A stretch of DNA of 64,000 nt from an uncultured Candidatus Saccharibacteria bacterium. Lineage in GTDB: Bacteria; Patescibacteriota; Minisyncoccia; Phycocordibacterales; UBA2100. Location: the NCBI GenBank assembly GCA_964398775.1, contig CAYNND010000006.1, positions 3,890-67,889 on the forward strand, written 5' to 3'. The notes under the pieces are model-generated. The model searched no databases. It saw nothing but the letters and a program-made list of their open reading frames with translations, and was not told the DNA's origin. Each line of letters begins with the position of its first letter. Positions within the stretch are counted from its first letter, which is position 1. This document shows positions 3,957 to 63,150 of this stretch, piece after piece. The translations under genes were made by a program, and so were the position numbers.

Positions 3957-4032
3957 TGGGGTGGCCATCGGGAATCGAACCCGAATTAAAGGCTCCACAA
4001 GCCTCTGTGTTAACCGTTACACCATGGCCACC
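3957..4032 (-). tRNA. tRNA-His (anticodon GTG). The extra 5' G(-1) and the 3' CCA are genome-encoded.
   Basis: Reverse complement folds as a cloverleaf. Acceptor gGUGGCCA/UGGCCAC. D-stem GUGU/ACAC. Anticodon stem GAGGC/GCCUU with loop UUGUGGA. T-arm UCGGG-UUCGAUU-CCCGA, then C73-CCA. Confidence 0.85.
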
Positions 4033-15947: not shown

Positions 15948-16200
15948 AGAAGATATTAAAAATCGCCCTTATAAAATGACAAACATTCATTTTATAAGGG
16001 CGATTTTCACCGCGGTACCACCTTATTTGTTGCTCATCGACTCCATACTGCTATGACATCGATTATCTCTGTTACGGGAGCTCCCGAGTATTCACTTGTG
16101 CAACTACTACCATGCGCATGAAGCGCGATAGCGACCCAGTCTCCCGTACAGGTACTCCTGCGAGAGATCGCTATCAATGGCTATATCTATACATACTCTA
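15948..16200 (-). promoter_or_regulatory. T-box riboswitch leader (tRNA-Trp-responsive) with intrinsic terminator, upstream of trpE
   Basis: On the minus strand: conserved T-box sequence AAAUAAGGUGGUACCGCGGUG (+ coords about 16003-16025). Immediately followed by a long hairpin AAAAUCGCCCUUAUAAAAUGA...UCAUUUUAUAAGGGCGAUUUUU. Upstream Stem-I-like hairpin GAUAGCGA...AGAC-UGG-G-UCGCUAUC carries a UGG Trp specifier plus purine. AGAGA (GA-motif) upstream. -35/-10 candidate TTGACT...TATAGA further upstream. Confidence 0.75.
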
Positions 16201-16276
16201 TAGGGAGCAGCCCATGGAGTCAAGGTGCTCACAGGCTCGGTTTGTATTCACAGAAAGATAACGGTATGGTTCTTGT

Positions 16277-25754: not shown

Positions 25755-26477
25755 ATGCACCGAATCATCACTATTATTTGCGCTGTACTTTTTCCAGCAG
25801 CACTCTTTGCATGGACAGGTCCGACAGCTGCACCACCTGGAAACAACATCGCTGCGCCAGTCAACGTCGGCGGTACTGACCAGTTCAAGCCTGCAATTGT
25901 CGGCGCGAACATTGTCAACATTTACGGTTCAAACCAGTATTTGAACTTTGGTAACACAACTGGTTCAACAGGATACGGTATCCGCAACAACGGAGGGAAG
26001 CTCGAGGCAAAGAACTCAGGTGGCGCATGGATTAAGCTTATAGATAAGCCATGGTTTGTCGCAAGTGGCGATGGATACGGCTGGCAGGGACAATCAGCAG
26101 GTACGTGGCTCTACCCAACAACACTCACAACCTTACGAGGCAATGCAACCGCAAGTTACAACCCTGCAACGGCGCTCTTCACAGCACCTGAAGCAGGTCT
26201 CTATTTCTGTTTCTTCCAGGGGTATAAGAGTTATACAGCTGCAGGGTATCACCATACCATTTCAACATGTAATGGCACGGTCTGTAATGGTTTTGGTAGC
26301 TGGGACTATACACTCGCATCACAGGGGTATACCTCATATGACCAATCAACATCACAAATCTCTGGAATCTATAACCTCGCACTCGGGGAAACAATTGGCT
26401 TTCGTATGTACTCTGAACAAGCAAACAGCTACTCATACTACCCACCATACTCACGCACGGGATGCGCAAAATTGTAA
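25755..26477 (+). CDS. secreted fibre/adhesin-like protein, paralog B1 (conserved N-module plus C1q/TNF-like C-domain)
   Basis: FAWTGPTAAPPGNNIAAPVNVG...NFGNTTGSTGYGIRNNGG. C-domain FTAPEAGLYFCFF...YYPPYSRTGCAKL. 240 aa. Confidence 0.7.
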   Translation: MHRIITIICAVLFPAALFAWTGPTAAPPGNNIAAPVNVGGTDQFKPAIVGANIVNIYGSNQYLNFGNTTGSTGYGIRNNGGKLEAKNSGGAWIKLIDKPWFVASGDGYGWQGQSAGTWLYPTTLTTLRGNATASYNPATALFTAPEAGLYFCFFQGYKSYTAAGYHHTISTCNGTVCNGFGSWDYTLASQGYTSYDQSTSQISGIYNLALGETIGFRMYSEQANSYSYYPPYSRTGCAKL

Positions 26478-26928: not shown

Positions 26929-27702
26929 ATGAACAACAACAGCTATAGCACACTGATACGTACCATTTGCTCAGCAGTAGTCGCAGCGTTTTTGATTGCA
27001 ACCTGTGGGGTGCAGACGCTTGCTGCATGGACTGCTCCTACGGGAACACCGGGCAATAATAATGCAGCACCACCTGTAAATACCGGAACAGGGACTCAGG
27101 CAAAACCAGGCGTGCTTGGAGCAAACATTCTGAACATTTATGGTTCAAACTTGTATCTCAACTTCGGTAACCCAGACGGTGCAAGTGGTTTCGGTATTCG
27201 CAGTAACGCAGGTGTGCTCGAAGGTAAAGATTCTGGGGGAGCGTGGGGCAAGCTTATAGATAAGCCATGGTTTATTGCAAACGGCACTTCAGCAGTGTGG
27301 CAGTCTCAGGGTGCTGCGACTTGGCTCTATCCAACTGCGCTTGATAATAAAAAAGGTAATGCCGCAGCGAGTTTTAACTCAGCAACAGGGTACTTCACTG
27401 CTCCAGAGGCTGGAGTTTACCTCTGTTTTTTCAGTGGGTATAAGAGTTACTCCACTCCTGATGTTCACCACACCATATCTACATGTTCAGGCGGCCCGAG
27501 CTCAGTATGCAACAACTTCGGAAACTATGACTATACGCTTGCTTCACAAGGATATTCGGGCTATGACCAGTCAACATCACAGCTTATCGGACTCTACAAT
27601 CTCATTGCGGGTGAAAGCATCACATTCCGTATGTACTCAAGTGCGGGAAACAGCTATGCGTACTACCCACCGCAGAGTCGTATGGGCTGCGCTAAGCTGT
27701 AA
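26929..27702 (+). CDS. secreted fibre/adhesin-like protein, paralog B2
   Basis: AAWTAPTGTPGNNNAAPPVNTG... Collinear with B1 through FTAPEAGVYLCFF...YYPPQSRMGCAKL. 257 aa. Confidence 0.7.
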   Translation: MNNNSYSTLIRTICSAVVAAFLIATCGVQTLAAWTAPTGTPGNNNAAPPVNTGTGTQAKPGVLGANILNIYGSNLYLNFGNPDGASGFGIRSNAGVLEGKDSGGAWGKLIDKPWFIANGTSAVWQSQGAATWLYPTALDNKKGNAAASFNSATGYFTAPEAGVYLCFFSGYKSYSTPDVHHTISTCSGGPSSVCNNFGNYDYTLASQGYSGYDQSTSQLIGLYNLIAGESITFRMYSSAGNSYAYYPPQSRMGCAKL

Positions 27703-27753: not shown

Positions 27754-28551
27754 ATGGAAACATTTTTTGCAAACCCAATTATTCAGAAAGTAGGCATCGC
27801 AGCACTTGGTGCACTTGCGCTCCTCTTTGCAGTTCAGTCAATCACTGAGATAAAAGGCTGGAAGTTTATAGGCTCAGGCACAACAGCGACTAACACCATT
27901 GCTGTTACTGGTAAGGGAGAAATTTTTGCAGTGCCAGATATTGCACAATTTACCCTTGGTGTAACAAAAGAAGCGAAAGATGTAAAGGCTGCCCAAAAGG
28001 AGGCGACAGAAAAGATGAATGACATCATCGCGTACCTCAAATCAACGGGTATCGAAGAGAAAGATATAAAGACGATTAACTATTCTGCACAGCCAAAGTA
28101 TGAGTGGATACAGCCACCATGCCGCCCTGGAGAGTACTGTGGAAACGGACAAAACAAGCTTGTCGGATTTACCGTATCGCAGACACTCCAAGTAAAAGTT
28201 CGAAAGGATACAGATAAGGCAAGTGATGTATTGGGTGAAGCTGGTGCGCGCGGTGCAACTGAAATTGGCTCACTTGAGTTCATAAATGATGATGAGGACA
28301 AGCTCAAGGCAGATGCTCGAAGCAAGGCAATTGCTGACGCAAAACAAAAGGCAGATACACTCGCGCGCGAACTGGGAGTATCTATCGTACGCATCGTTGG
28401 TTTCTCTGAAGATGGGGGATACCAGCCTGTCATGTACAAAGCAGCGCGCATGGAGGCAGTAGCCATGGATGCCGGAGCACCAGCACCTGAGCTTCCTGTA
28501 GGTGAAAATAAGATTCTCTCAAATGTCACTGTGACATACGAGATCAGATAG
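27754..28551 (+). CDS. SIMPL/DUF541 (YggE/BP26-like) periplasmic protein
   Basis: N-terminal anchor, then GFTVSQTLQVKVRKDTDKASDVL...ADARSKAIADAKQKADTLARELGV. 265 aa. Confidence 0.7.
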   Translation: METFFANPIIQKVGIAALGALALLFAVQSITEIKGWKFIGSGTTATNTIAVTGKGEIFAVPDIAQFTLGVTKEAKDVKAAQKEATEKMNDIIAYLKSTGIEEKDIKTINYSAQPKYEWIQPPCRPGEYCGNGQNKLVGFTVSQTLQVKVRKDTDKASDVLGEAGARGATEIGSLEFINDDEDKLKADARSKAIADAKQKADTLARELGVSIVRIVGFSEDGGYQPVMYKAARMEAVAMDAGAPAPELPVGENKILSNVTVTYEIR

Positions 28552-28570
28552 ATAGATAGGTTTACGCAAG

Positions 28571-28596
28571 AAAAGCCCCGCGGTACGGGGCTTTTC
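28571..28596 (+). terminator. intrinsic terminator ending the 20475-28551 same-strand cluster
   Basis: aaaaGCCCCGcggtaCGGGGCtttt. Confidence 0.65.
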
Positions 28597-29021
28597 TATA
28601 TTGAAAATATAAAAGTGCTCGCGCGTTCTGGATTGAACCAGGGGCATCGCGCGAGCACTTGAGCACACGGACTCCTCCGTGCGCGGTGACCAGGTACTCA
28701 ACGGCGGAGCCGCATAGGTCACGAAAGTAGCATATCATTACGTGTAGAAAAATGCAGTTGACCACAAATATTTCACTGGTACGATGCTTCTCGGTCAATA
28801 GCGAGAGGGCCTTCAAATGGCAACGCGAAAACAGATGCGTCAGGTGACCATTTCACCCAGGTGGGGTGGCCACGTGCGGACGCCAAAAGTGCAGCAACCT
28901 GTAGATTGGTATACCCACCTCGAGTGGTGGTACTACCGTCTCGGGCTCTTTGCGGCGTCAGTATGTCGCATCTTCGTTTGAGACCAGTCGAGGGCGCGTT
29001 CGCGTGCCCTCGACACCCTAT

Positions 29022-29050
29022 TTGACTTACTCGAAAAGCAAGGTATTATA
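29022..29050 (+). promoter_or_regulatory. sigma70-like promoter for secE-nusG-rplK
   Basis: TTGACT, 16-nt spacer, TATTAT, about 50 nt upstream of the secE ATG. Confidence 0.45.
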
Positions 29051-29101
29051 CAGCTATACAGGGCCGCGAGGCCTTTTAAAATTGCTTTATAAACAAATAC
29101 T

Positions 29102-29287
29102 ATGAATAACCTCATTCAATATTTCAAAGAGACTCGAGCAGAGCTCGATCACGTCAACTGGCCAACACAGCGCACGACACTTATCTATACCGCGCTCGTT
29201 GTGGCGTTTTCTGCAATCGTCGGTGTGTATCTTTCACTCCTTGATTACGGTTTTACGTTCGGACTCGATAAGTTCTTGATTCAGTAG
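29102..29287 (+). CDS. secE: preprotein translocase subunit SecE
   Basis: 61 aa, single C-terminal TM. ...ELDHVNWPTQRTTLIYTALVVAFSAIVGVYLSLLD. Precedes nusG. Confidence 0.85.
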   Translation: MNNLIQYFKETRAELDHVNWPTQRTTLIYTALVVAFSAIVGVYLSLLDYGFTFGLDKFLIQ

Positions 29288-29318: not shown

Positions 29319-29861
29319 ATGGCACTGCAAGCAATCAACGAGCGACACTGGTACGTCATCCACACCTACTCAGGATATGAGGAGGCGGTAGGTCGTAACT
29401 TGCGTCAGCGCATCGAGACGATGGGCATGAAGGATAAGATTTTTAACGTTGTAGTCCCGACAGAGAAGAAGATAAAGGTAAAGGGCGCAAAGCGCATTGA
29501 GGAGCGTGAGCGTGTCTACCCTGGATATGTACTTGTGGATATGATTGTAGACGACAACTCGTGGTATGTCGTGCGCAATACCCCTCGCGTTACAGGGTTC
29601 GTCGGCTCTGGGACACAGCCAGTGCCACTCTCTGAAGCAGAAGCGCAAGACCTCTTTAACCGCATGTCAGCTGACACTCCGACGCACGATATTGACTTGC
29701 AGCCAGATGACTCAGTCATGATTGTTGATGGACCATTTAAAGATCTGGAAGGGAAGGTTGGTGAGGTAAACGCAGCATCGGGCAAGGTGAAAGTGCTTGT
29801 GCCAATGTTTGGACGTGAGACCCCAGTTGAGCTGGACTTCCTCCAGGTGAAGAAGGTGTAG
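29319..29861 (+). CDS. nusG: transcription termination/antitermination factor NusG
   Basis: WYVIHTYSGYEEAV (NGN domain) and a C-terminal KOW FKDLEGKVGEV. 180 aa. Confidence 0.95.
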   Translation: MALQAINERHWYVIHTYSGYEEAVGRNLRQRIETMGMKDKIFNVVVPTEKKIKVKGAKRIEERERVYPGYVLVDMIVDDNSWYVVRNTPRVTGFVGSGTQPVPLSEAEAQDLFNRMSADTPTHDIDLQPDDSVMIVDGPFKDLEGKVGEVNAASGKVKVLVPMFGRETPVELDFLQVKKV

Positions 29862-29948: not shown

Positions 29949-30377
29949 ATGGCAAAGAAAATTGTTAAGCAGCTCAAGCTCCTTATCCCAGCGGGTAAGG
30001 CAACACCAGCGCCACCTATCGGTCCAGCACTTGGTCAGGCAGGTATAAACATTGGTGATTTCGTCAACAAGTTCAACGAAAAGACTCGTGACCGCATGGG
30101 TGACACACTTCCAGTTGTCATCATGGTCTATGAAGATCGCTCATACGACTTCATTGCAAAGCAGCCTTCAATGACTGCGCTCATCAAGAAGGAGCTCGGT
30201 ATTGAAAGTGGCTCGGGCAAGAACACGCAGGTGAAAGTTGGTAAGCTCACAAAGGCAATGATGAAAAACATTGCTGAAAAGAAGATGCCAGACTTGAACA
30301 CTCCAGACATCGAGCAAGCTATGCGCATCGTTGCAGGGTCTGCACGCTCAATGGGTGTTGATACTGAAGCGCTCTAA
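29949..30377 (+). CDS. rplK: 50S ribosomal protein L11
   Basis: MAKKIVKQLKLLIPAGKATPAPPIGPALGQAGINIGDFVNKFN. 142 aa. Confidence 0.95.
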   Translation: MAKKIVKQLKLLIPAGKATPAPPIGPALGQAGINIGDFVNKFNEKTRDRMGDTLPVVIMVYEDRSYDFIAKQPSMTALIKKELGIESGSGKNTQVKVGKLTKAMMKNIAEKKMPDLNTPDIEQAMRIVAGSARSMGVDTEAL

Positions 30378-45335: not shown

Positions 45336-45884
45336 ATGTGTGTGGCATATCATACGTACACAACACGTTCCTACATACTGAGTGCTGGGCAATATAGCGA
45401 ACACGACGCACTCTATACGTGCATCACTGATGAGTTTGGTGTGCTCCGTGCGCGCGCTACAGGCGTACGTAAAGAGGATTCTAAATTGCGCTACTCGCTC
45501 CAAGTGGGCGCTTGTGTATCACTTTCGCTTGTACAAGGAAGGGCTGGGTGGCGCATCACCGGTGCGGTACTCATACACGAGCCATCAAGAGCAACCATTA
45601 CGCTGTTTGCTCGCCTTGGGAAATTAGCTGAGCGGCTCGTCCATGGACAGGAACGTAATGATGCACTCTTTGAAATATTTACTGCATGTAGGCAGGCGCA
45701 GGATGTGCGAAGTAGTGAACTCCTATTAGTCATACAGATGCTGGTTTCACTCGGCTATATACCGCCGTACATTATTGAAGGTATATTAGAAAAGCCTGAA
45801 ACGGAGCGTATCGCGTACATTGAGTCGCACCGCCCCATCTTATTGAAGACAGTAAACAATGCGCTCAACGCGAGCCATCTGTGA
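45336..45884 (+). CDS. possible DNA repair protein RecO (start uncertain)
   Basis: OB-fold-like N-terminus (SYILSAGQYSEHDALYTCITDEFGVLRARATGVRKEDSKLRYSL) and a helical C-terminus (LLLVIQMLVSLGYIP). No Zn-finger Cys. Weak. Confidence 0.35.
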   Translation: MCVAYHTYTTRSYILSAGQYSEHDALYTCITDEFGVLRARATGVRKEDSKLRYSLQVGACVSLSLVQGRAGWRITGAVLIHEPSRATITLFARLGKLAERLVHGQERNDALFEIFTACRQAQDVRSSELLLVIQMLVSLGYIPPYIIEGILEKPETERIAYIESHRPILLKTVNNALNASHL

Positions 45885-45927
45885 ACACAGGAGATAGGGG
45901 AGCGCGTTTCGTTGCTATACTACGAGT

Positions 45928-54454: not shown

Positions 54455-54461
54455 AACACCT

Positions 54462-55271
54462 ATGATTCAACCAAACTATTTTGATACGCACAGTCACATC
54501 CATTTTCCGCAATTTGATGCGGATAGGGCAGATGTGATTGAGCGCATGCAGCATGCCGGTGTCTGGACAGTGCTTGTTGCAACAAACGACGCGACATCGC
54601 GTTCAGCGATAGCGCTTGCTGAAAAATATTCATTCATGTTTGCAACGATTGGAGTGCATCCGACAGAGTTTGAGACATTTACAAAGACACACTATGAGGC
54701 ACTCGCTAAAAAGACAAAAGTGGTCGCAATAGGTGAGTGTGGGCTCGACTATTTCAGGAAAGACATCACAAACGAGTACATCACCGAACCGAAGCGTCAG
54801 CAAGACTTGTTTGAGTCACAGATTCGATTTGCACTTGAACATGAGAAGCCGCTCATGATGCACATTCGACCCTCATCTGGCTCTACAAACGCGCATGACG
54901 ATGCTCTGGCAATTCTTGAGCGCTATAGTAAAGAGTATGGTGAGAAGCTCCGCGGCACAGCACACTTTTTCACCTCTACTCCTGAGATGGCGAAGCGATA
55001 CCTTGAGCTTGGGTTTCATATTTCTATCCCGGGTGTTATTACCTTTGATAAGGACCTTGAGGAGACGGTGCGATATGCACCCATTGAACGTATTTTGTCC
55101 GAAACAGACTCTCCGTACGCTGCCCCTGAACCACACCGCGGTAAGCGTAATGAGCCAGTCTATGTGCAGCAGGTTGTACACGCAGTCGCGCGCATAAAAA
55201 AAATGACCGATGAAAAGACTCGTATGCAGCTGTTCGTCAATGCTGCGCGGCTCTTTGGTGTAACACTCTAG
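54462..55271 (+). CDS. tatD: TatD-family metal-dependent DNase/hydrolase
   Basis: FDTHSHIHF...IGECGLDYF...ETDSPYAAPEPHRGKRNEP. Start moved to the internal Met after the metG stop. Confidence 0.8.
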   Translation: MIQPNYFDTHSHIHFPQFDADRADVIERMQHAGVWTVLVATNDATSRSAIALAEKYSFMFATIGVHPTEFETFTKTHYEALAKKTKVVAIGECGLDYFRKDITNEYITEPKRQQDLFESQIRFALEHEKPLMMHIRPSSGSTNAHDDALAILERYSKEYGEKLRGTAHFFTSTPEMAKRYLELGFHISIPGVITFDKDLEETVRYAPIERILSETDSPYAAPEPHRGKRNEPVYVQQVVHAVARIKKMTDEKTRMQLFVNAARLFGVTL

Positions 55272-56407: not shown

Positions 56408-56430
56408 ACATTTACCACTAAACTCGTATC

Positions 56431-56628
56431 ATGGCCGACTATTTCACAACGCATAACGTTCAGTTCATCGACTACAAGGATATCGAAATCCTTAAGAAAT
56501 TCATTGACCCACACGGCCGCATCATCAACCGTCGCCGCAGTGGACTGTCAGCGAAGCACCAGCGCCAGCTCACAGAAGCTATCAAGCGCGCACGATTCAT
56601 GGGACTCATCCCATTCATCATGTCGTAA
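56431..56628 (+). CDS. rpsR: 30S ribosomal protein S18
   Basis: FIDYKDIEILKKFIDPHGRIINRRRSGLSAKHQRQLTEAIKRARFMGLIPF. 65 aa. Confidence 0.95.
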   Translation: MADYFTTHNVQFIDYKDIEILKKFIDPHGRIINRRRSGLSAKHQRQLTEAIKRARFMGLIPFIMS

Positions 56629-56644
56629 CTCCTCTTGGAGACAC

Positions 56645-56677
56645 TAAAAAACCCCGAGCATGCTCGGGGTTTTTTGT
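56645..56677. terminator. bidirectional intrinsic terminator
   Basis: aaaaaACCCCGAGCAtGCTCGGGGTtttttg, between convergent rpsR and the 56693-57160 gene. Confidence 0.7.
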
Positions 56678-56692
56678 TGAACGAAAAGGGGA

Positions 56693-62782: not shown

Positions 62783-63150
62783 ACTTGACCGGTAGCCTCC
62801 TGTGCTGGAAACTGCGTGACTAAGGACCACTCCAGGACCTGCCTACAGGGCTCCTTGACACACCATCCATGCATGTTCTTGTATGTTGTTCGGAAAGACC
62901 AAGTTTGACTATACGTCTATATATTTGTATCCTTATGGAACCGGTTAGCGACTGGTTTGAGCCATTTCTAGAGGGGATACCTTTGGAGTGGTTTATTCGC
63001 GTAGCATATCGGTTGTCCACAAAGCCAGAGTAAACTTTGGTTTAGGGTAGAAAAACGTACTACAATAGTAGTGCGCTCTATCTATCAAGACAGGGCACAA
63101 CGTTCTTTGAAAACTAAATAGAGAATAAAAAAGCACGCTGTGCTCTGGAC

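Follow-up and report, generated by a model that had tools for sequence, protein, structure and literature searches.

The gap that separates the SIMPL/DUF541 gene from secE in this Paceibacteria/Kaiserbacteria-like genome of the Patescibacteria contains an insertion that probably carries a self-contained small-protein gene together with a candidate sRNA on the opposite strand, after which come the promoter and leader of secE. The gap runs from the SIMPL stop codon to the secE ATG (28552-29101). At 550 nt it is longer than any other in the window, by which is meant the whole 64-kb stretch of DNA that was analysed and whose numbering is used throughout; the 66 gaps of a crude ORF map have a median length of about 18 nt, and seven of them reach 200 nt or more. 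The unusual length of the spacer before secE, which a sequence-only reading of this DNA had pointed out, is thus borne out. The features of the gap and its neighbors, in order along the plus strand, are as follows:

27754-28551, plus strand: SIMPL/DUF541 gene, the upstream neighbor of the gap
28569-28597, both strands: bidirectional intrinsic terminator of the SIMPL gene, AGAAAAGCCCCG-cggta-CGGGGCTTTTCT, with 12-bp perfect arms
28604-28760, minus strand: three-hairpin element, a candidate divergent sRNA of ~157 nt (from folding and conserved architecture)
28660-28613, minus strand: hairpin H1 of that element, 13 bp, followed by UUUUAUAUUUUC
28684-28663, minus strand: hairpin H2, 9 bp
28722-28686, minus strand: hairpin Hb, a GUGACC/GGUCAC stem around a small hairpin
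28760-28723, minus strand: AU-rich single-stranded tail, the 5' end of the three-hairpin element
28758-28785, plus strand: sigma-70-type promoter of the small ORF, with -35 TTGACC, a 16-nt spacer and TG-extended -10 TACGAT
28767-28775, minus strand: possible extended -10 for the minus-strand RNA, TGaAATATT
28803-28809, plus strand: Shine-Dalgarno sequence GAGAGGG, 7 nt before the ATG
28817-28981, plus strand: 54-codon ORF, MATRKQMRQVTISPRWGGHVRTPKVQQPVDWYTHLEWWYYRLGLFAASVCRIFV, absent from the annotation; stop codon at 28979-81
28987-29014, plus strand: stem-loop that begins 6 nt past the stop codon and probably terminates the small gene; its tail ACCCUAUUU enters the secE -35
29022-29049, plus strand: secE-nusG promoter, TTGACT-16-TATTAT, with 10 of 12 consensus positions
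29060-29077, plus strand: secE leader hairpin AGGGCC-GCGA-GGCCUU, followed by a U/A-rich stretch; terminator-like, at the 5' end of the secE mRNA
29102-29287, plus strand: secE, whose ATG at 29102 marks the right edge of the gap
29319-29861: nusG, downstream of secE
29949-30377: rplK, downstream of nusG

The gap upstream of secE and its clade-specific module

The entire gap folds more stably than its dinucleotide shuffles on both strands (z = -5.3 for the plus, -4.2 for the minus). The inverted repeat that had been given as 11 bp long (28615-28658) is real and is in fact perfect over 13 pairs (28613-25/28648-60); its core pattern TGCTCGCG-N-CGCGAGCA has a single occurrence in the 64 kb and none in 100 shuffles. 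The stem at 28987-29014, described as 9 bp, is equally real and reaches 12 pairs with 92% complementarity. A GGTGA-ccatt-TCACC hairpin (28843-57) does exist, but within the ORF, and relatives have not preserved it; the TTGACC/TACGAT promoter is present at 28758-28785, with a TG before the -10 but a spacer of 16 rather than 17 nt. With these repeats, the promoter, the folding z-scores and the empty tRNA and Rfam scans described below, the observation of an unusual gap is therefore correct and well beyond chance. Two things had been missed: the promoter and leader of secE itself take up the final 80 nt, and the 13-bp repeat is part of a separate three-hairpin element upstream of the promoter, one that folds better when read on the minus strand.

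A tRNA-Trp, a 6S-like RNA and the leader of the ribosomal-protein operon had all been considered as possible occupants of the gap, and none of them is found there. ARAGORN gives tRNA-His (3957-4031) as the sole tRNA of the 64-kb window and no tRNA upstream of secE in 80 related loci; neither it nor Rfam reports a tRNA-Trp in the gap, and no degraded tRNA-Trp is present either. Rfam yields no match at the gathering threshold in the window, the gap or nine relatives, and even at E <= 10 no family falls in the gap, so that no known leader is indicated; across these scans there are chance-level matches only, none of them to 6S RNA (RF00013). 6S RNA is a ~180-nt rod with a central bubble, and the left half of the gap folds instead into three separate hairpins, unlike that closed rod. 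An origin as a dispersed repeat (MITE or REP) was rejected, since the 64 kb contain a single copy of the H1 stem motif, and a comparison of about 100 related loci showed it solely in the gap upstream of secE. Other long gaps of the window (54455-54872, 62783-63139, 15948-16276, 45628-45927 and 56408-56692; 285-418 nt in the crude ORF map) have no Rfam match at the gathering threshold.

The comparisons made here draw on 80 species-level genomes that share SIMPL-secE-nusG synteny with the window; the NusG relatives of the window are all Patescibacteria MAGs. When the gap was searched against these 80 with blastn and nhmmer, L001 alone proved alignable (its NusG is 98% identical to that of the window). 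A metagenome scan with SecE brought in one more lineage, L081, and exact-protein look-ups found near-identical copies of the window lineage (L084, L087 and L089) and of the L081 lineage (L085 and L086). The locus is also present in identical form in the Logan assemblies SRR12404947 and SRR12487013 and in JGI 3300045332 and 3300045333. There are in this way three independent lineages (window, L001 and L081) and, with L085, four distinct sequences. The pairwise distances among the three lineages are about equal, and synonymous sites are saturated between them (nusG dS ~1.5; 45% of third codon positions differ). The ORF, promoter and hairpins are kept in all three, which is what the alignment of relatives proposed in the sequence-only reading returned, alongside the lack of any known RNA or tRNA. 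That reading had also named absence of conservation in relatives as grounds for abandoning it, and this is half the case, the module being confined to a very narrow clade. One additional contig, L088, is 93-100% identical to the window over the ORF and secE region, but its first stretch (1-60), which begins some 50 nt ahead of the Shine-Dalgarno sequence, is unrelated to the promoter and hairpins that would be expected there; this is either an assembly-end artefact or a variant without the left half of the module.

An equivalent of the SIMPL terminator is found in all relatives, and its position in the window (28569-28597) forms the left boundary of the module. In closely related sister lineages the SIMPL-secE gap is far shorter: 110 nt in L100 (NusG 96% identical to that of the window), 141 nt in L092-L095 (91%) and 145 nt in L097 (88%). 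These gaps contain a terminator, promoter and leader only, with the SIMPL terminator abutting the secE -35. The window clade therefore has about 420 extra bases, roughly 28598-29021, and by this comparison the ~420-nt module is a clade-specific insertion between the SIMPL terminator and the secE promoter. In L085/L086 an ABC1-kinase-like gene replaces SIMPL upstream, and the module still adjoins secE. The SIMPL-secE gaps of six other relatives (L013, L017, L042, L062, L098 and L101) hold mutually unrelated small ORFs of 37-89 aa with Shine-Dalgarno-like sequences, which suggests that this slot is a hotspot for small accessory genes in Paceibacteria. Upstream of the SIMPL gene lies a pair of paralogous genes (25755-26477 and 26929-27702; ~240-257 aa) with a weak C1q-like Pfam match (E = 0.014) and a conserved C-terminal ...GCAKL; these paralogs are also present in L001, L081 and L084.

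To the right of the module, the secE promoter occupies the place directly after the SIMPL terminator in the sister lineages that have no module. The leader hairpin that follows it, short and GC-rich with a loop of tetraloop size, is invariant within the clade, and an equivalent hairpin with a U-run is present in at least 54 of 97 related loci (for example L092, L096-L101 and many of L003-L080), 11-50 nt before secE, or in a few of them up to ~80 nt. The stems differ among these loci with compensation (GGCC, CGCCC, CCCC, ACCCC and others). The secE gene itself has no Shine-Dalgarno sequence, and the hairpin looks like a terminator-like attenuator or a 5' stabilizer of the secE-nusG mRNA.

The small-protein gene

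The right half of the module would make up a complete transcription unit: an extended -10 promoter, a 5' UTR of about 25 nt that includes GAGGG, 54 codons and a stem-loop terminator. Transcription is predicted to start near 28792. The extended -10 promoter is kept in three of three lineages (TTGACC-16-TGgTACGAT in the window, with -10 TAGGAT in L081 and TTGACG/TACGCT in L001), and GAGGG or AGGGG lies 6-7 nt before the ORF's ATG in all three as well. The ORF has the same length, start and stop in the window, L001 and L081/L085; the alignment is gapless, and its ATG and stop columns match. It is missing from all public gene calls for the six independent contigs on which the region is found.

Several measures agree that the ORF is protein-coding. 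Frame +0 is the only one of six that is free of stops across the four distinct sequences, and its BLOSUM62 sums are 116-151, vs 2-73 in the other frames. Amino acid identity is 42-49%, compared with 26-32% under neutral simulation with an equal number of substitutions; in that simulation the observed identity was never reached for two of the lineage pairs (P < 2e-4) and gave P = 4e-4 for the third, and the chance of the ORF remaining open was about 0.1 per lineage pair. The dN values are 0.43-0.54 against a saturated dS, with dN/dS of about 0.24. Thus the generic marks of a coding sequence (frame-specific conservation, start and stop, ribosome binding site, no indels) are all present. The protein nevertheless changes rapidly, and its 42-49% identity compares with 92-99% in the neighboring genes.

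The sequence-only reading had proposed a transcript of about 220 nt here, possibly an sRNA. The independent unit, with a conserved promoter and the 28987-29014 hairpin, stands; its non-coding nature does not, since it carries the conserved 54-codon ORF preceded by a Shine-Dalgarno sequence. It is very unlikely that the ORF is incidental and that the transcript acts as a non-coding sRNA or mainly at the level of RNA. The strong structure of the transcript (z = -4.3) and the conservation of promoter and terminator would suit such an RNA, but the conservation is frame-specific, ORF length, start, stop and Shine-Dalgarno sequence are all maintained, and nucleotide identity within the ORF (53-59%) is below that of the flanking non-coding parts (window vs L081) while the protein frame is kept. 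Furthermore, there is no Rfam match, and the hairpin at 28843-57 is not conserved. The frame-specific signal is what makes a purely non-coding sRNA the less likely reading. The ORF fills about 75% of the predicted transcript, behind a short 5' UTR, so the unit looks like an ordinary small mRNA; as judged from these comparisons, it is a small protein-coding mRNA and not a non-coding sRNA.

The predicted mRNA is folded in its own right. The ORF mRNA has folding z-scores of -2.3 to -4.5 (the value of -4.3 given above is that of the ~220-nt window transcript), and in the consensus structure the 3' end of the ORF supplies a CUUC that pairs with the GAGG of the Shine-Dalgarno sequence, with an additional 5'-GGUC/GACC-3' closure; the covariation term of this consensus is about 0. 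The hairpin at 28987-29014 is conserved with a compensatory change of U-A to C-G, and its L081 version is scored as terminator-like by scan.

The position of this hairpin raises the idea of a regulatory upstream ORF, in which translation to the stop codon would block the terminator and so allow read-through into secE-nusG, tying the operon to the cell's capacity for translation. Only 6 nt separate the stop codon (28979-81) from the hairpin's 5' arm, which a terminating ribosome would therefore cover, and the module stays with secE even where the upstream gene differs. But secE has a strong conserved promoter of its own past the hairpin, sister lineages manage without the module, and amino acid constraint over 54 codons is unusual for a leader peptide. 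Chiefly because of the first two of these points, such a regulatory role seems most improbable, and we prefer the reading of a self-contained small-protein gene.

The protein itself has no recognizable relatives outside the clade. A word-indexed search and HMMER found no homologues among 1.84-5.8 billion predicted proteins; full HMMER against 1.84 billion representatives returned repetitive long proteins only. There is no family for it in Pfam or NCBIfam at E <= 1-10 and no match in PHROGs or PADLOC, and the best match among PDB sequences (eS19, E = 0.35) is not significant. Identification as bL33 (rpmG) or another small ribosomal protein was rejected on the absence of a Pfam or NCBIfam match. 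A three-sequence HMM run against six-frame ORFs of about 100 loci recovered the same three lineages only, and with no homologue elsewhere the family therefore rests on these three. Modeled by AlphaFold from the single sequence, the protein has a low-confidence, probably disordered basic N-terminal segment of 30 residues and a single C-terminal helix at residues 31-53 (pLDDT ~90) that is aromatic-rich and moderately hydrophobic and carries Glu36, Arg41 and Arg51. The residues conserved among the lineages are T3, K5, I12, P14, W16, G18, R21, V29, D30, E36, Y39, Y40, G43 and R51-I52-F53. Most likely, this small protein associates with the membrane or with a partner. Its predicted tryptic peptides include VQQPVDWYTHLEWWYYR and LGLFAASVCR. 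A 58-aa ORF in the L101 gap has a similar composition (basic N-terminus and C-terminal ...LRFFH) but no demonstrable homology to it.

The three-hairpin element, a candidate opposite-strand sRNA

The left half of the gap (28604-28760) lies upstream of the small gene's promoter and so is not part of the small mRNA. Its best reading, a tentative one, is an sRNA some 157 nt long that would be transcribed divergently. The order Hb-H2-H1 is common to the window, L081, L085 and L001, even though L001 shares only ~31% nucleotide identity with the others in the Hb/H2 region, and two double compensatory changes separate the H2 of the window from that of L081. The minus strand is favored by folding: RNAalifold gives consensus energies of -57.0 kcal/mol for the minus strand and -45.8 for the plus, energies of the single sequences are likewise lower on the minus, and z-scores for the four sequences are -4.5, -2.3, -3.1 and -4.1 on the minus vs -3.2, -0.9, -1.4 and -2.9 on the plus. 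Three positions of H2 and one more in Hb are A.C mismatches when read on the plus strand but pair as G.U when read on the minus; the strand call hangs on these few positions, because inverted repeats fold on both strands. With just three independent lineages, which cannot yield statistical covariation, the covariation is anecdotal and confidence in the sRNA is limited accordingly.

The putative RNA would end at the 13-bp hairpin and its U-run. Two of the three lineages have such a run directly after H1 when the minus strand is read (UUUUAUAUUUUC in the window, CUUUUUUU in L081/L085); L001 has none after H1, and there the bidirectional SIMPL terminator lies about 20 nt further on. The start would be set by the minus-strand -10-like element, which is weak and was not reported by a consensus promoter scan. 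The window (AATATT) and L001 (CATTGT) both have the pattern TGn plus xAxxxT at the corresponding place, and L081 has a weaker form of it (AATATA, without the final T). This element overlaps the plus-strand promoter, so both promoters would be mutually exclusive. The expression of the two genes would then be coupled by mutually exclusive promoter occupancy, and possibly also by pairing of their RNAs.

A covariance model, R1, built from the window and L081 lineages recovered the window and L081/L085 only; the L001 version was not recovered as a whole, and weak minus-strand matches in the L101 and L096 gaps were driven by the terminator. R1 therefore gives no independent support for the sRNA. A minus-strand ORF at 28562-28816 was considered as well and was ruled out because it is not conserved. 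In the secE-upstream gaps of L096 (620-735) and L101 (704-846), whose NusG is 88% identical, the minus strand carries terminator-like hairpins with U-runs, though there is no minus-strand protein gene there to terminate. One of these hairpins has a TGCTCGCG...CGCGAGCA stem as in H1, and both loci have in common a long hairpin with a AGAATCAA loop; they may be diverged relatives of the candidate sRNA.

The joint arrangement of the two halves raises the question of a type I toxin-antitoxin-like pair, in which the 54-aa product would be a membrane-active toxin, the folded mRNA would restrain its translation and the divergent sRNA would repress it. This is a functional refinement of the explanation preferred here and does not contradict it. 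In type I systems the pairing of sRNA and toxin mRNA is typically 18 nt or more. In the three lineages it amounts to only 10-13 bp, at non-homologous sites and only marginally above shuffles (p = 0.07, 0.01 and 0.10), any overlap in cis would depend on where the two transcripts start, and full-length sRNA-mRNA duplex energies are no better than those of shuffles; the mRNA consensus has practically no covariation, the helix with Glu36, Arg41 and Arg51 is just moderately hydrophobic, and neither PADLOC nor any other family source gave a match. What speaks for such a pair is the small ORF with its single predicted C-terminal helix, the adjacent divergent and structured sRNA candidate, the folding of the mRNA (z = -2.3 to -4.5) with GAGG paired in the consensus, the patchy, insertion-like distribution together with fast protein evolution, and a gene arrangement like that described for timP/timR and its relatives (PMC7667032). 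Because the complementarity is unconvincing and the helix only moderately hydrophobic, the locus is not filed as type I and the reading is judged unlikely. That a type I-like pair with overlapping promoters stands directly before the essential secE-nusG genes of an ultrasmall Patescibacteria genome is, on the present analysis, quite unlikely. The preferred reading remains an inserted small-protein gene with a candidate opposite-strand sRNA.

Significance and comparison with known systems

The case illustrates that automated annotation leaves real genes in "non-coding" gaps. To our knowledge, the regulatory RNAs and small proteins of Patescibacteria are almost unexplored, and the present locus adds to them an orphan small-protein family and a candidate sRNA. 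The orphan small-protein gene is new, but the elements found are of known kinds and do not amount to a novel type of system. Small genes at the SIMPL-secE junction vary from lineage to lineage, in keeping with a hotspot. We know of no type I system described in Patescibacteria, and the term "type I toxin-antitoxin" was in none of the 8 top-ranked papers out of 407 that matched two or more of three literature search terms; if the toxin-antitoxin reading were true, the range of type I systems would come to include reduced epibiotic genomes. Failing that, the result is a modest, annotation-level one in a poorly studied phylum.

In other bacteria, tRNA-Trp and/or rpmG precede secE-nusG-rplKA. The module resembles this canonical upstream region in its position immediately before secE-nusG-rplK, and is unlike it in that there is no tRNA, the ORF is neither bL33 nor otherwise ribosomal, and the conserved neighbor in the clade is SIMPL/DUF541. 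A second parallel is with the dual-function sRNAs SgrS/SgrT, RNAIII/Hld and SR1/SR1P, in which a short, highly structured transcript, with a promoter and terminator to itself, was taken for non-coding yet hides a conserved small ORF; such small proteins hidden in supposed sRNAs have been reviewed (PMC12310071). Unlike those, the transcript here is a putative small mRNA whose ORF takes up ~75% of its length.

The closest counterparts are divergently arranged loci of the type I toxin-antitoxin-like class: timP/timR of Salmonella and tisB/istR-1, shoB/ohsC, zor/orz and dinQ/agrB of E. coli. The module differs from this class in having no convincing conserved sRNA-mRNA complementarity, in a C-terminal helix with three charged residues, in the lack of similarity to known toxins and in its Patescibacteria host. 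It shares with the class an ORF of fewer than 60 codons that annotation has missed, an adjacent sRNA candidate on the opposite strand that would end in a terminator hairpin, a strongly folded mRNA and a patchy distribution, and the divergent arrangement of a small ORF with an adjacent, oppositely oriented sRNA is that of timP/timR (PMC7667032).
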